A stretch of 64,000 nt of DNA from Chrysomallon squamiferum (Eukaryota; Animalia; Mollusca): assembly GCA_012295275.1 (NCBI GenBank), contig CM022671.1, positions 28,706,001 to 28,770,000 of the forward strand, read 5' to 3'. Under the pieces are notes generated by a model. The model was not told the origin of the DNA. It saw only the letters and a program-made list of their open reading frames with translations, and made no database searches. Positions 1-55,241 of this stretch are shown here, in pieces (positions within the stretch are counted from its first letter, which is position 1; every line of letters begins with the position of its first letter). The translations under genes were made by a program, and so were the position numbers.

Positions 1-1595
1 AATCACCAGTTGTACACAATTAAAATAACATTACAGCTGTAAATAACAATAACAAAAACTATTTCCTCTCACACACTCAGTCACACTCATTCACACTCAC
101 ATGCATGCATACTTATTTATTTGGAATATTCATATATATTTACAATATTTTATAGTATTAATTCTTTTATCCATTTCCATGATTTATCTATATTGATTAT
201 TTGTAGCTTTCCAAAGGATATTTGAAAATAAGTATGTCATCTTTTAGTTCTAGGAAAATATTGTTCTTAACATATTTGTTAATAAAAATTGAAAGTTTGT
301 TTTGAATACGATATTGATTTAGAATGATTTTAAAGCACTGATACATATAATTTCTAAAAAAATGTATTATATTGATATTTGTTCCTTTCATTTGAGCTAT
401 TACACGCCTTTTGAACACTGTTATTCTATAAATTGAAAGAATAATATTAATAAATTCTATTGTACTATTTTCAATTTTGAGGTAACATCCAAATATTAAT
501 AATCTTTTTAATTGTTCTAGAGAAAACCCTGTTTTCTTAAATATATAAATACATATTTCATGAAAGATTGATATTAATTCCTTCAATTCTTCACAATACA
601 AAAATAAATGGCACAAATCTTCATCATCCTTCAAACACACTGGACATACACTAGATGAGATTTTGCCATATTTATATAATTTGTTATATGTATATATTAT
701 ATGATGAACTATTCTAAAATCTAAGTCTATAAATTCAGTAAATTTATCACTATAGTGTATCCATTTCCAAACTGGTCTCCAGAATATATTAAAACCAAGC
801 TCATTCCATTTTTCTTCACAAGTTGGTGCTTTAAAGTTTTTAAAATTAAAATAGAATAAATTATTTTAACTGTAAATTTACTGACATTTATCATTTCATT
901 ATTCTGAAACAAAAATAAATCTTTATTAGAAGTTAATTTTTTAGCATTTCTGTTAATAGAACTTTTCCATTCATCTGGAAGTGATTTCTTAATAACATTG
1001 TAAGCTATATAAATTTGGTTTTTGGATAATTCTGGAGATTTTTCATGAATAATTTCTACAATAGCTGTAAAAGGAAGAAAACCTGGTATTACTTCATAAG
1101 CAATATCAGCCACTTTGACTATTCCACTTTTTATAAAAGAACTAAATAATAATAATTTGTTTTTATATTTGATGAATGGATTTTGAAAAAGTGGCTGAGA
1201 CAATATTTCATCTGTATCAAGTGGGAAATTACGTTCTCCATTATTAACATAGTCCCAAGCTGATAACATTTCAGCATAAAAGGGATTGATAACTTTTAAA
1301 GCTTCTTTACTGTATACTATTTTAAAAATGTCATAATTTAGATTCATATTCATATATTTTTCAAGAAATATTGACATTGTATATTTCCACACATTTTTAA
1401 AATTATTATCAAAATATTTCTTTAACATTTTTATTCGAAAAGCCATTTTCTTTAATGAAATATCTTGAATATTTAGTCCACCCGACATTTTATTTCCAAT
1501 TATTGTTGAATATTTTATTAAAGATGTTTTCCCTTCCCACATAAATTTACAAAATAATTTATGAATTTCATTTTCTACCCAATTTGGTACACTAA
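1..1595 (-). mobile_element. 5'-truncated non-LTR retrotransposon (L1/Tx1-like LINE): ORF2 C-terminal part plus 3' UTR running off the window's left edge
   Basis: ORFs 727-1599 and 197-640 join through a 1-nt frameshift in the A-run at ~837-845 (second frame reads NFKAPTCEEKW...DFRIVHHII...CPVCLKDDEDLCHLFLYC). Contains post-RT motifs FCKFMW and GGLNI, a QPLFQNPFI motif and the C-terminal CCHC zinc knuckle typical of L1/Tx1 ORF2. Stop at 197. Homology to host tRNA-flank DNA starts abruptly at 1593. Confidence 0.85.
197..1595 (-). pseudogene. Frameshifted, 5'-truncated LINE ORF2 (RT C-terminus plus CCHC zinc-binding domain)
   Basis: Translated motifs as for the LINE; no endonuclease or core YADD RT motif is present in the window; single frameshift near 840. 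Confidence 0.8.
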
Positions 1596-1845
1596 CCATC
1601 TAATGTTTCAGTGAAAGCCTTAAATACCTTTAGCTTAACCAGGCAGCCGTCTAGAACGCACACGTAAGAGGGGTGCATTACTGGCCTTTAAGGGTCACAG
1701 TTTTGTATAACCATGAATATATAAAAAAAAACATATATATCGGTAATTGTTCATTGTTCATAATAGTTAAAGAGAGTAAATCGTTAGTTCTAAACCAGTT
1801 TATTATTTTCAACAATAACAGTATTGTTAAACTGAAATCAAGATT
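1593..1845. repeat. Paralogous copy of the 5' flank of tRNA-Val(CAC) (matches 2906-3130)
   Basis: taaccatctaatgtttca...cctttagcttaaccag...gcattactg..cctttaagggtca...aaccagtttatta..ttcaaca.taacagtattgttaaa aligns colinearly with 2906-3130. Confidence 0.9.
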
Positions 1846-2446
1846 GGTTATGTTTGCACCTTAAAGCCTTATGCTAGTTATGGTGCTGTTAAAATTAATA
1901 TATCAGTTTTCAAGTTTTGTGCTTTCTTATTTCATTTTTTTTATTTATTTACCGTTTTGATTTTGATTTTAATTTAATTTGTTTAATTAATTAATTTATT
2001 AATTTATTTTTATTTCATTTTTATTTCATTTTTTATTATTATTATTTTTTCCGGAGCATGAGATGTCACATCAATCACAAGCAGCAATGAATTTTTGTAA
2101 TTATTTAGTATATTAACACATGATTTTTTTAAATTTACACAATATCCTTTTAATAAGTAACTGTTCAGTAATGTATTTTAAAATGGAATTATGTGTGAAA
2201 TAAATGTTAAAAATATATTATTGGATAACGAAAAAATAACAACAGATAGAACCGTTTAATAATAATAATAATAATAATAAAAATCTAATTAAAATAATAT
2301 TCTTAGAAGATACATATTATTATTTGTTTTTCTTATTAAAATTGGATTTTACTCGAATAATTATTTCAGCGAGCTTTTAAAACTCATATTAACTTGAAAC
2401 AGTATAATTCGTTAGTGCAACCATCTAAAAATATTAACAAAATTAA

Positions 2447-2897: not shown

Positions 2898-3210
2898 GCT
2901 TTAAATAACCATCTAATGTTTCATTGAAAGCCTTATATACCTTTAGCTTAACCAGTCTAGGACGCACGCGTAATAGGGTTGCATTACTGACCTTTAAGGG
3001 TCAAAGTATATTAAAAGAAACGTATACCAGTAATAGTTCATTGTTCTTAATAGTTTAAAAAGAGTTAATTGTTAATTCAAAACCAGTTTATTATCTTCAA
3101 CACTAACAGTATTGTTAAAGTGAAATCTAGATTTTTATTTTGATAACTTTTCTTAAAACTGGAAACAGTAGAATACGTTAGTATTACAAACAAAATATTA
3201 GCAAAACTAA

Positions 3211-3283
3211 AGGTTTCGGCGAGGCTCGAACTCGCGACCTTCTGCGTGTAAAGCAGACGTGATAACCACTACACCACGAAACC
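3211..3283 (-). tRNA. tRNA-Val (anticodon TAC)
   Basis: Full cloverleaf, loop TT-TAC-AC, perfect acceptor GGTTTCG/CGAAACC; TTTT downstream. Confidence 0.95.
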
Positions 3284-3333
3284 TACATATAAACGTGTGT
3301 AAAATGTAGATCTATGACGACAACATTGTTTTT

Positions 3334-3409
<76 letters not shown>

Positions 3410-3646
3410 AAATATTAGACTGGAAACATTGCTGCATTTCTTTTTTGAGTGAGAGAGAGACAAATAGAAAATCGGAAAAAAACACCACCCACTCACATCA
3501 AGATGGATTTATCGATAATACAGAAACTTTTATTTTAATATGATTAAAATTCGATAAAACGATATTGGTTTTGTTTTCTGGAGGATTTTTTTTTTCTTTG
3601 TTGTTTCATGCTATATACATGTTCATGCGATAAAAAAAAAAAAACT

Positions 3647-3732
<86 letters not shown>

Positions 3733-3997
3733 GAACAAGACGTGATGTCGACCATAAAATTAATATTAGTTTATAGTATCCAATGTCAATACAGTAAGTT
3801 TTTGTCAATTCATTTATTAATTTTATTATTTAAATTCCTAACGAATTAAATTACATCATTCAATAACATGTAAATTAAATATTGTTTCATAATATCTTAT
3901 TTCATAAAAATCACTTTTTAAGCATGTCAAGTTAATAAATATTAGTTTATAAACTATTTTAAAATGAGTTGTTGTACCATATTCATGATACTGTTAT

Positions 3998-4026
3998 GGT
4001 CGCGAGTTCGAGCCTTGCCAAAATCT
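3998..4026 (+). pseudogene. 3' fragment of a tRNA-Val gene (variable loop, T-arm, acceptor 3' strand)
   Basis: ggtcgcgagttcgagccttgccaaaatct matches the 3' ~29 nt of the neighbouring tRNA-Val genes and is followed by a TTTT terminator; 5' half absent. Confidence 0.75.
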
Positions 4027-4191
4027 TGATTTTCTTTCTTGTTCTTTTTCTTCTATTAATTTGTGGCTACTGAAGGAAAAAAAAAAAATCATATGATGAC
4101 ACACCTGATATCAAACTGTTAATATTCGTAATAGTTTTATCAAACTTGAAGTGTCGAATTATCACATATTTAGTGAAATATGATTATAATC

Positions 4192-4264
4192 GGTTTCGTG
4201 GAGTAATGGTTATCATGTCTGCTGAACACGCAGAAAGTCATGAGTTCAAGCCTCGCCGGAATCT
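4192..4264 (+). pseudogene. Degenerate tRNA-Val(AAC) pseudogene
   Basis: Full-length homolog with U33>G (TG-AAC-AC), D-stem GAG/CAT, T-stem ATGAG/CTCGC mismatch and T-loop TTCAAGC. Its 5' flank (4060-4190) is paralogous to the flank of the intact AAC gene (5175-5304). Confidence 0.85.
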
Positions 4265-4269
4265 TAATG

Positions 4270-4810: not shown

Positions 4811-5304
4811 AAAAGTACTTTGTAGATAAAATATAATCACACTTTCCTGTTAAAAATTCATATTTTCTAGAAGGATTTATCAGTGAGCTTACTTAATCAT
4901 TTATTTTAATTTTTCGTATCAGAAAGCATATATATATATTTAAATTAATTAATTAATTAATTTATTAATTTATGTTACTAAGTAGTAGCAAGTTAACAAA
5001 TGTTAATATTACAGTACAGATATTTTGCATTCAAAGTGTTTAAAATAATTTTTCTATACATTCACGTTTTCACTTTATTTTATGTTTCTATTCTTTTCTT
5101 TTCTTTACTTATTTATTTATTTATTTATTTTATATATTTTTATTATTGTTATTATTATCTTATTTTTGTTGTTGAGTGGCTATAGAAGGCGGAAAACAAA
5201 ATCATATAATGAGGTACCTGATAACTATCTGTTAATATTCGTAATAATTTTATCAAACCAAAAATGTCGTATTACCATATATGTAATAAAATACGCTGTA
5301 TGTA

Positions 5305-5377
5305 GGTTTCGTGGTGTAGTGGTTATCACGTCTGCTTAACACGCAGAAGGTCGCGAGTTCGAGCCTCGCCGAAACCT
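5305..5377 (+). tRNA. tRNA-Val (anticodon AAC)
   Basis: GGTTTCGTGGTGTAGTGGTTATCACGTCTGCTTAACACGCAGAAGGTCGCGAGTTCGAGCCTCGCCGAAACCT; perfect cloverleaf, long T-run downstream. Confidence 0.95.
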
Positions 5378-23206: not shown

Positions 23207-29404
<6,198 letters not shown>

Positions 29405-32875: not shown

Positions 32876-32973
32876 CTCACGCATTCTCTCTCTCATAATT
32901 ATATCAGCGAGCTTTTAAAACTGATATTAACTGGAAACAGTTCAATTCGTTAGAAACATAATTATATCATCTA

Positions 32974-33011
32974 GTGTAAAGCAGACGTGATAACCACTAC
33001 ACCACGAAACT
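32974..33011 (-). pseudogene. 5' half of tRNA-Val(TAC) within a displaced copy of the cluster unit (~32895-33070)
   Basis: gtgtaaagcagacgtgataaccactacaccacgaaac is identical to the 5' half of the TAC genes; both flanks match the flanks of the genes at 2447 and 3211; T-arm and acceptor 3' strand are deleted. Confidence 0.85.
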
Positions 33012-33061
33012 TACATGTAAATATCTGTAAAATGTAGATCTATGACAACATTGTTTTTTTC

Positions 33062-33136
<75 letters not shown>

Positions 33137-34630: not shown

Positions 34631-37011
34631 CTACTCAAAATACACCGCATGAACGTTAACGACAACGACGAGGGTTTTATTGCGGTACGTGCAGGTAGCG
34701 AACGAGTCCGTTTCCGGATCCCACACGCATCTGCTCGCTATCCGCGTTCCTTGTCCAAGGTTCTCCATGATGACCACGTGACACACAAGCTTATATCTTG
34801 GGAAATCCATCGCTTTCACGCGAGATTTAATCACGGTAGACAACTCGGTACTCAGATGGCGACACTTTTCCGGGTCATAGCTGACGCTGTCTAACTTGGC
34901 CTCCAGAAGGTGCATCACGCACTTCTCGACTTTTTCACTCAAAAACTTTTTGTCCGGCTTCGTTTTGTACGTGTTTTCAGTTTTAACCGGCACGCGCTTC
35001 TCCTCCTTCTTGGAGCTGTTTCTCTTGGCTATGCGGTGCCAGGCGTGCGTTGCTGCGACGAACTTGAATATCGACATCCCCCTGGTCGTCGTTGCGTGAG
35101 AATTGCTCGAATCGCCGTCGCTTCTGAAGCTGGACAGACGACTTCGTTTTCTGACGAGGGGAGCATGTTCCTTGTTTTGTGCAGGTTCTTTAGAGGGTGC
35201 AGGTTCTTTAGAGGGAGCAGGTTCTGTAGAGGGCTGTTAGAAAAAATATAAATAAATAAATAAATAAATAAAAACTAACTAACTAACTGACAGCTAACTA
35301 ACTAACTAAATAAATAAAACTAACTAACTAACTAACTGACAGCTAACTAACTAACTAAATAAATAAATAAAACTAACTAACTGACAGCTAACTAACTAAC
35401 TAAATAAATAATATTAATAAAGATTATGGATGGTCAGTTCTGGTCGTTACATGATTTCGAGAGATTCTTGTAGTGTACAAGAACTCGATATTTAAACAAA
35501 ACGGTTTATAATAATTAATAAATTATTTTAGCTAGGTTATTATCTGTTTGTTTGTTATTATCCGAGAAGGATTTCAAGTAAATAACACTTTTTTTTGGTA
35601 ATGGAAAAGATTATTTTCGTTATCTCGAAAATTGCCGAAGGCCGCGAGATCAAAATCTTGTAACTATTGATTAGTCACCGTCTATTATTTTTATTTTGTT
35701 GTATGTATGTATGTATGTGTGTACATTTGTTTATTTATGTATTTATAACCCTGTAGATTACCTGGTGTCGTGAGAAAAGGATTTAACATGAACAAAGAAG
35801 AAAAAAAAAAAACATCCTTCAAAATCCTTCAAAATCCTTCATATTTGGTAATGAAATTTATGGAAATAAAATTCCATGGTTAAAAATGAATAAATAAGCA
35901 ACAAAATTTAAACAACAACAAGTACTACACTACCATAAAATAATAAATAAATAAAATAATTAAAATAAAAAATTCTGATTAAAAAAATTATACATGTATT
36001 TATATATTTACGATGCAGTGAACAACAGTATTGTCTTTACACGTTTAGGTAACATACTGCATACATATTTATTTATCTTAATTAAAAACAGAAACAACTG
36101 AACTAGCTAATTATGTGTGAAATACCAGATATTTACTAGCCATTAAAACAGACTTAAATATACATACATATATATCCCACAGAAAATAAATAAACATAAA
36201 CGTATACAAACCCAATACAAACAGCTATTCAAACACACATACAAACATACAATATATACATAAACAAACACGTGCGTGCCCGCACGCACGCCCACACACA
36301 CATACACACACCAACGTACATACATGGACTCATACAAGTATACGTACACAAATACACACAATACACAAACTAAAGTAAAAAATCGGTGTAGAAAACAACA
36401 AATTTTAAAAGTATCTTACCTTCAAATAAGCCATGTCGTGATAAAATAACAAGTTTACCTGCCTGCCGAAAGTGTATCGTTTGAATCTCGCATTTTCTTT
36501 TATTATTAATTTCAAGTCCACTTGAAATGAACGTAGAGCATGCCCGAGTTTAGTGCACACTGCATTACTGAAGCAGTCTTTGTTCATTAACACAGAGTGA
36601 CAGTTTTATTGTGCGACAAATCCCTTCTCTTTAATACGTTATTGTTTGGCGTTTTTTTTTGCCCCTATGTTTTTAACCAGTTCGGTTGAAGCTTTACACG
36701 AGAATGCATATATAATTGTGTATGTTTTGAACGTCAAAGTTAGGTAAAATTTAAAAAAAATAAAATTAAAAAAAATATTCAAAGGTAATACAAAATCGAT
36801 TTTTATAATGTTCTAATTTATTTCTTTTCTAGACCTATACATACATAAACACATAGGTTCATGTATAAATACATACATACATACATATATATATATATAG
36901 TTGTCTATGTACGTACATATATAAATATATACATATATATGTAAATACAAAGCTACATACATACATTCACAAATACAGGGGACATAAAGATACATATCTG
37001 TTAATATATGT

Positions 37012-54436: not shown

Positions 54437-54509
54437 AGGTTTCGGCGAGGCTCGAACTCGCGACCTTCTGCGTGTTAAGCAGACGTGATAACCACTACAC
54501 CACGAAACC
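54437..54509 (-). tRNA. tRNA-Val (anticodon AAC)
   Basis: Revcomp is identical to the 5305-5377 gene; TTTTT terminator follows. Confidence 0.95.
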
Positions 54510-54557
54510 TGCTAAATTAATATCGTGTAAAAAATAAATAAAATACAAATAATATTA

Positions 54558-54892
54558 CAAGTACCGGACCAATTATCCGTCGTCCTGAAATCTGGAAAGA
54601 CCAGAAAACCGGAAGTTTCATTCCCGACACTATTTTCATAGTTCGCGCTGGTGTTGACCTCATCAGACCGGAACTACGCTTTCAAGCCGCGAGGCGTTCA
54701 TTCACTCGCCGCATTGTTTACATGTCGAGTCGCCACAGTTGAGTATCGTCAATTTTCTTTATGTTTTTAATTTTAAAATGTTTATGCCGAATTTTTTACG
54801 TATTTAGATGTCTTGGTACAAGAAAACCGGAAAATCCAGAAATCCGGAATGATTTAGACTCCAAGGAGCCCGGATAATTGGTCCGGTACCTG
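54558..54892. mobile_element. Tigger-like MITE, 335 bp, TA target duplication
   Basis: TA|CAAGTACCGGACCAATTATCCG ... CGGATAATTGGTCCGGTACCTG|TA (21/22 TIR match); subterminal AAA(A/T)CCGGAA repeats. Confidence 0.88.
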
Positions 54893-55241
54893 TATAACAG
54901 TCACGTTAACAGGCGAATTAAAGTGAAGAAAGAAAAGTTTTATTTAATAAAGTAATGAACACATTTTAACTTACTGTTACGTAGTGCCACGGCAAAACAT
55001 CACACAGATATTCAGAAAGAAAACCCAAGAAAAATGTAGATAATTTCGAATAACACCTAAATACCTTTATATGCGGCTTCTCATTGGGTCACTGGTTGGA
55101 ACGGGATATCGTACTGTGAATGGTCTCAGGATTCTGCCTGGATCTATGAAAGTTCAATGACAATTAATAATCTGTTTACAGAAAGCAAAAATTCTGATTG
55201 TTGAAAACACCTTTTCTAATATGAATTATTAAATCTCACTA

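Follow-up and report, generated by a model that had tools for sequence, protein, structure and literature searches.

A LINE of the L1/Tx1 type in Chrysomallon squamiferum with a probable insertion site inside tRNA-Val genes, at the D-loop's 3′ edge

Results

The stretch analysed here, called the window, comprises 64,000 nucleotides from the mollusc Chrysomallon squamiferum (assembly GCA_012295275.1, contig CM022671.1, positions 28,706,001 to 28,770,000 of the forward strand). It is AT-rich animal DNA with numerous microsatellites. Positions 1–1591 hold, on the minus strand, the 3′ 1.6 kb of a LINE that we assign to the L1/Tx1 type; this copy is truncated at its 5′ end at 1591, and its tail lies to the left of the window. 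ARAGORN and Rfam each call five tRNA-Val genes in the window, four of them within the first 5.4 kb: tRNA-Val(TAC) at 2447–2519, tRNA-Val(CAC) at 2825–2897 and tRNA-Val(TAC) at 3211–3283 on the minus strand, and tRNA-Val(AAC) at 5305–5377 on the plus strand. All four are empty targets, and the CAC gene also served as our reference unit. Self-BLAST of the window adds decayed and partial tRNA-Val copies. A 3′ fragment and a decayed copy lie on the plus strand at 3998–4061 and 4192–4265, and a third, partial tRNA-Val(TAC) unit at 32895–33132, 30 kb from the cluster, has a gene that stops at about +37.

Elsewhere in the window, a single-frame gene at 34631–35236 encodes a Tctex-1 domain (PF03645, E = 8e-31); its protein has its best match in Gigantopelta aegis (75% across 74% of the query length), followed by Haliotis, which fits a gastropod host. 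A short frame at 27772–28236 looks like the DNA-binding N-terminus of a Tigger/pogo transposase. The stretch at 54556–54894 is a ∼340 bp element with 24 bp inverted ends and, by eye, TA at both borders; it looks like a miniature DNA transposon and sits 46 bp upstream of a tRNA-Val(AAC) gene at 54437–54509.

The minus-strand frames at 727–1599 and 197–865 correspond to the C-terminal part of the LINE ORF2, as judged from the open reading frame list, Pfam and alignment. The first frame covers the region after the RT domain (836–1590, 59–64% identity to 13 rows of the clade described below). Searched alone against Pfam, frame 727–1599 gave no match; in full-length LINE proteins its counterpart is the C-terminal part of ORF2, at 60–63% identity. 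The second (197–865) carries a CCHC zinc-binding motif and the stop codon, and matches zf-RVT weakly (E = 4e-4), short of the Pfam cut-off. An earlier note on this DNA, made from the letters alone, had called the copy young, with one frameshift and no in-frame stop over ∼1.4 kb, and this holds: there are no in-frame stops over ∼1.39 kb, and the frameshift near 836 belongs to the window copy only, being absent from the other copies in all four sequencing runs that we compared. In runs X1 and X5 the incomplete 3′ untranslated region (1–196) is covered as deeply as the remainder of the LINE, and a contig from the RNA run (627 long, 613 aligned) extends 14 letters past window position 1. By eye, the last 18 nt of the 3′ untranslated region resemble the target. 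Past 1591 the other LINE copies run on as ordinary ORF2 sequence in 4/4 runs, so 1591 is the point of 5′ truncation. The LINE end had been placed at about 1593, which is right to within two bases; the exact end is 1591, and the single base at 1592 belongs neither to the LINE nor to the paralogous flank beyond it.

Four of 14 listed public sequencing runs were compared with window positions 1–1900. LINE contigs show 0–4 differences over 239–837 nt from the window LINE, and the depth over the LINE exceeds that over the unique flank (484 versus 27 in X1; 2807 versus 78–98 in X5); depth is not copy number, and the ratios suggest tens of LINE copies. Such close matches, and the large excess of depth over the LINE, indicate that the family amplified recently. 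In the RNA run X8 there is coverage of the LINE but none of the flank, although such libraries can contain DNA.

To place the family we used a quick tree of 50 rows, from which three loci (L003, L004 and L026) were left out as having no alignable stretch. The window protein falls with L008, a sister copy described below, in one clade of 14 rows (SH-aLRT 99) with six subfamilies. The window holds only the C-terminal part of ORF2, and the endonuclease and RT are predicted in a full-length relative, P0002, on which assignment to the L1 group (L1/Tx1) is based. P0002 matches PF03372, PF00078 and PF13966 above cut-off, with an N-terminal apurinic-type endonuclease, an RT and a C-terminal CCHC motif, and its best match of solved structure is human LINE-1 ORF2p (E = 5e-88, versus 2e-15 for R2). 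Two L1-group traits are also seen, namely a poly(A) tail (in L008) and variable 5′ truncation (at 1591, at 707 and within the L008 ORF1). The ORF1 of another clade member, L006, matches PF00098, the CCHC zinc knuckle, above cut-off. Such a knuckle in ORF1, rather than Transposase_22, is consistent with Tx1 (PMC5203782) and so with putative Tx1 membership here, as a trait not exclusive to Tx1 and with a tree that holds unnamed relatives only. The named relatives, at ∼40–43% identity, come from Mytilus, Patella and Solemya. For Crassostrea gigas, PMC10294476 mentions 14 L1-Tx1 entries. Endonuclease domains from four subfamilies are 62–75% identical. Different subfamilies occur on contigs of equal length, as clusters 2, 3 and 4 do at 88,385 bp; this names no target but suggests that several subfamilies may use common landing regions.

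At the 5′ junction the LINE gives way to a flank (1593–1845) that aligns with 2906–3133, the module upstream of the tRNA-Val(CAC) gene, at 203/254 positions (80%, E = 3e-66 in self-BLAST); both are on the minus strand. This bears out the earlier reading of the flank as a ∼240 bp paralog of 2906–3130. The self-BLAST and tRNA calls also confirm that the paralog starts at −9 of the CAC gene, since 2906 is position −9 relative to the mature 5′ end at 2897. The units at 1593–2681 and 2906–3800 have the same order of module, trailer, tRNA-Val(TAC) and upstream region, the first with ∼500 extra bases; because both keep this order, the LINE occupies the place of a CAC gene. The LINE was said to lie on the same strand as the tRNA, and it does (LINE and CAC gene are both on the minus strand), as do the two further insertions described below. 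We find it very unlikely indeed that this junction is an assembly artefact in which a collapsed LINE repeat was joined to the flank of a tRNA cluster. The element is multi-copy and sits at the very start of the window, and no contig bridges 1591/1593 among the pieces listed, as such an artefact would have it; against this, the window copy has its own fixed differences from the majority of copies, and the flank up to 1900 is present in the DNA run X1. Even an artefact here would leave the evidence from the other two insertions standing.

The second placed 5′ junction comes from run X6, as one contig in 1/4 runs. Up to 707 (minus strand) it is LINE; then come the first 21 nt of a tRNA-Val gene, oriented as the LINE is, and after them a different upstream flank. 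The next three bases of the tRNA are the same as the first three of the LINE, a 3 nt microhomology that places the joint somewhere from +21 to +24. Of the adjoining LINE contigs, one stops at 707 and the next begins at 678; such a 30-letter overlap is what a branch in a 31-mer graph should give, and the summed depth would leave ∼7 for the X6 branch. With this break and depth, an origin from one chimeric read is unlikely. Among the loose ends listed, only this one enters a tRNA.

The third junction is a complete insertion of a sister family. A scan of prokaryote assemblies confirmed 3/60 pattern matches, all host-type LINE DNA, and one of these, L008 (contig CBDCGX010000035.1), is 97% identical to P0002 and has 62–63% protein identity to the window LINE (69% over 1397 bp of DNA). 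This copy sits at one edge of a tandem array of 498 bp units with a tRNA-Asp(GTC) gene apiece and splits one of the genes. The 5′ side reads tRNA-Asp +1 to +10 and then the end of ORF1; the 3′ side reads poly(A) and then tRNA-Asp from +22 onward, with A21 ambiguous against the tail. About 11 target nucleotides were deleted and there is no duplication. The alignment of tRNA-Val with tRNA-Asp is gap-free through the D-loop, and the X6 junction and the 3′ junction of L008 therefore mark the same nucleotide. L008 probably comes from another host species than the window, as its contig has no repeats in common with the window and no protein in the searches or tree rows is more than 64% identical to the window LINE protein. 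At 3768–4266 of L008 there is also a decayed fragment from this LINE clade, with 68% identity to the neighbouring copy and ∼640 bp upstream of a tRNA-Asp gene; this piece, away from the nearest tRNA, counts against tRNA targeting.

As read in L024 (G001:C35:1-18800), the tRNA-Asp array has at least 34 tRNA-Asp(GTC) genes in its 498 bp units. Three of the 34 units carry the same 343 bp SINE-like insert at one spacer position with a 12 nt duplication; these three longer units had been considered as LINE ends and were rejected, being SINE insertions. L024, L006 and L007 are animal-type DNA inside a bacterial MAG. No tRNA was found in L006 or L007, but their contigs do not reach the ends of the element. 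G001–G003 hold no copy of the window subfamily or of its tRNA-Val unit. Screening 401 + 401 prokaryote genomes for contaminating host DNA yielded no further locus with flanking sequence, and one piece of 616 bp only. None of 172 pattern matches in viral contigs was confirmed. Metagenome contigs gave five distant loci from 40 matches; in these five, ARAGORN found no whole tRNA and Rfam nothing convincing, and the split tRNA-Asn gene of L003 and L004 (see below) showed up only when the ends were read.

Discussion

The case for targeting consists of three junctions: two 5′ junctions of the window family and the complete insertion of the sister family. Taken together they make it probable, on comparison of these sequences, that insertion is sequence-specific: the family enters tRNA-Val genes after A21, at the D-loop's 3′ edge, and points the same way as the gene. 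The hexamer TGGTTA ends both tRNA-Val junctions, at +16 to +21 in X6 and at −14 to −9 in the window. In the intact CAC gene the D-loop hexamer lies at 2877–2882 on the minus strand, and the insertion point would be just after it; the look-alike at the window junction lies at 1593–1598, also on the minus strand, and the junction is one base after this TGGTTA, the same hexamer that precedes the X6 junction. As TGGTTA is locally common (three in the 258 bp flank versus 38 in 128,000 positions), the coincidence of hexamers reaches only p ≃ 0.02–0.05.

Two readings of the window copy follow. We lean towards an insertion at +21/+22 with loss of ∼30 nt (−8 to +21) between the two copies of TGGTTA. 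Direct insertion at the look-alike, leaving the gene whole, is the less likely alternative, and the intact tRNA-Val that the earlier note predicted after the LINE tail, which goes with it, is no longer favoured. Both readings of the −9 edge are ones of sequence recognition and not of distance from the transcription start.

In that note the LINE targets tRNA genes and integrates close to the Pol III start, ∼9 bp upstream, in the manner of Ty3 and TRE5. X6 (tRNA-Val +21) and L008 (a split tRNA-Asp gene) support the first half of this proposal and give no support to the second, as these junctions lie inside the gene at +21/+22 and L008 has lost target bases instead of duplicating them. Guidance by the Pol III machinery to ∼9 bp upstream of intact tRNA genes, as for Ty3 or TRE5-A, would account for the window junction at −9/−8 of the CAC gene position and for its orientation. 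It is nonetheless very improbable: the X6 copy is joined at +21 to +24, the tail of L008 is followed by +22, and the −9 edge coincides with a look-alike that is found within 300 nt upstream in only 1/7 tRNA-Val copies examined, that of the CAC gene.

Absence of any targeting is improbable too. Here the window junction would be a chance insertion, or else a deletion that stops where an old miniature DNA transposon ends, and X6 would be a chimera of a tRNA fragment and a LINE. The flank module is a low-copy repeat with variants elsewhere and has weak, imperfect inverted ends (score 22, reached by 15/3168 random windows and 45/1703 pairs of the same spacing), and a 13 nt inverted pair is present at 85% in the second copy of the flank. 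Human tRNA/LINE-1 chimeras do exist, although they are mostly antisense tRNA halves of 30–40 nt (PMC13174262), whereas X6 holds 21 nt in the sense orientation. A chimera would also not explain why the joint matches to the base the 3′ end in the sister family, nor chance why 2/2 placed 5′ junctions are at tRNA-Val gene positions. With sequence-specific LINEs defined by >20% of flanks in one target (the Kojima criterion; PMC4494074), the sample at hand is these two junctions and the one sister insertion.

LINEs integrate by target-primed reverse transcription. For the preferred insertion after A21, the apurinic-type endonuclease of ORF2 would nick at the D-loop motif AGTGGT(G/T)A, and reverse transcription would start at this nick and copy the poly(A) tail. 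The 5′ end would then be joined through microhomology or with target bases lost, as would often happen (11 nt in the Asp copy), and little or nothing would be duplicated. The ∼30 nt loss in the window copy might reflect a second-strand cut at the look-alike or later slippage. The choice of target by LINEs is described as set mainly by the endonuclease (PMC4494074), and the subfamilies of this clade likely differ in the tRNA isotype that they use, as far as sequence comparison can indicate.

Several known systems are similar in part. Mutsu, a Tx1-clade LINE of zebrafish, disrupts 5S rRNA genes ∼20 nt from the 5′ end and has subfamily-specific targets (PMC5340908). Like the window family it is a two-ORF LINE with a sequence-specific site ∼20 nt into a Pol III gene, but its target is 5S rDNA and its host a fish, and we compare the two by target habit and not by kinship. 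Dewa, also from zebrafish, is target-specific for multicopy tRNA loci, yet it inserts in the spacer of tRNA-Leu arrays (PMC3706591), whereas the insertions placed here interrupt the tRNA-Val and tRNA-Asp genes themselves. Keno, Kibi, Koshi and Tx1-Mar are target-specific Tx1-clade LINEs in U2 genes, microsatellites or transposons (PMC4494074); these are multicopy targets, as here, but are not tRNA genes in that account. TRE5-A of Dictyostelium is, in the same sense, a tRNA-associated non-LTR element, guided by TFIIIB/TFIIIC to ∼50 bp upstream (PMC3159450, PMC3706591) with no fixed base inside the gene in these descriptions; a set upstream distance with an intact gene, as in Ty3 and TRE5-A, is not what is seen in X6 or in the split gene of L008.

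Insertion inside tRNA genes in gene orientation is described for LIN15_SM (planarian, tRNA-Arg), LIN25_SM (tRNA-Glu) and NeSL-1_TV (tRNA-Pro) (PMC4640811). For LIN15_SM the tRNA-Arg sequence picks up again at +24 on the 3′ side, a difference of two bases from the site here. The three elements are relatives of the NeSL clade, with its restriction-like endonuclease, in contrast to the apurinic-type enzyme of P0002, and the likeness is one of convergent target and not of membership. Dada DNA transposons comprise families specialised by tRNA isotype, including Val and Asp, with sites mostly at the A box and anticodon (PMC8869645); they differ in having a DDE transposase, duplications of 6–7 bp, an A-box site at nucleotides 8–13 and, for Dada-tV, a site in the anticodon arm. 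A literature search, with Repbase and Dfam outside its scope, found no L1/Tx1-type LINE inside tRNA genes. As internal tRNA targets are already published for unrelated LINEs and for Dada transposons, the window family adds to a known strategy and is not a new principle.

Sequence-specific LINEs underlie RNA-templated gene-insertion tools, and target choice by apurinic-type endonucleases is much less understood than that of R2. Tentatively, the clade may be a mollusc-wide L1/Tx1-type radiation that cuts tRNA genes after A21, with at least six close subfamilies, each using another isotype, and endonucleases that differ by only 25–40%. If this is true, the radiation would be a ready-made series from which to learn how target sequence is encoded in an apurinic-type endonuclease. 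With subfamilies that share one insertion position but differ in tRNA gene, target switching could be tested directly by domain swaps, and the family would be one more way in which mollusc tRNA clusters lose genes.

Two observations concern the loci left out of the tree. In L003 (84–119 and 5667–5685) and at the 3′ end of L004, both metagenome contigs of freshwater type, a tRNA-Asn-type gene is interrupted in its anticodon loop by a distant two-ORF LINE (24–25% identity to P0002), which lies in gene orientation with nearly blunt joints. The 3′ junctions of the two are at the same base, with the tRNA-Asn identity read by eye; this is apparently a second, independent tRNA-internal target for an apurinic-type LINE. 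In L026 (G001:C55, minus strand) a direct repeat of ∼150 bp (∼1958–2110 and 4997–5150) surrounds a distant 5′-truncated LINE with poly(A), which is unusually long for a target-site duplication.
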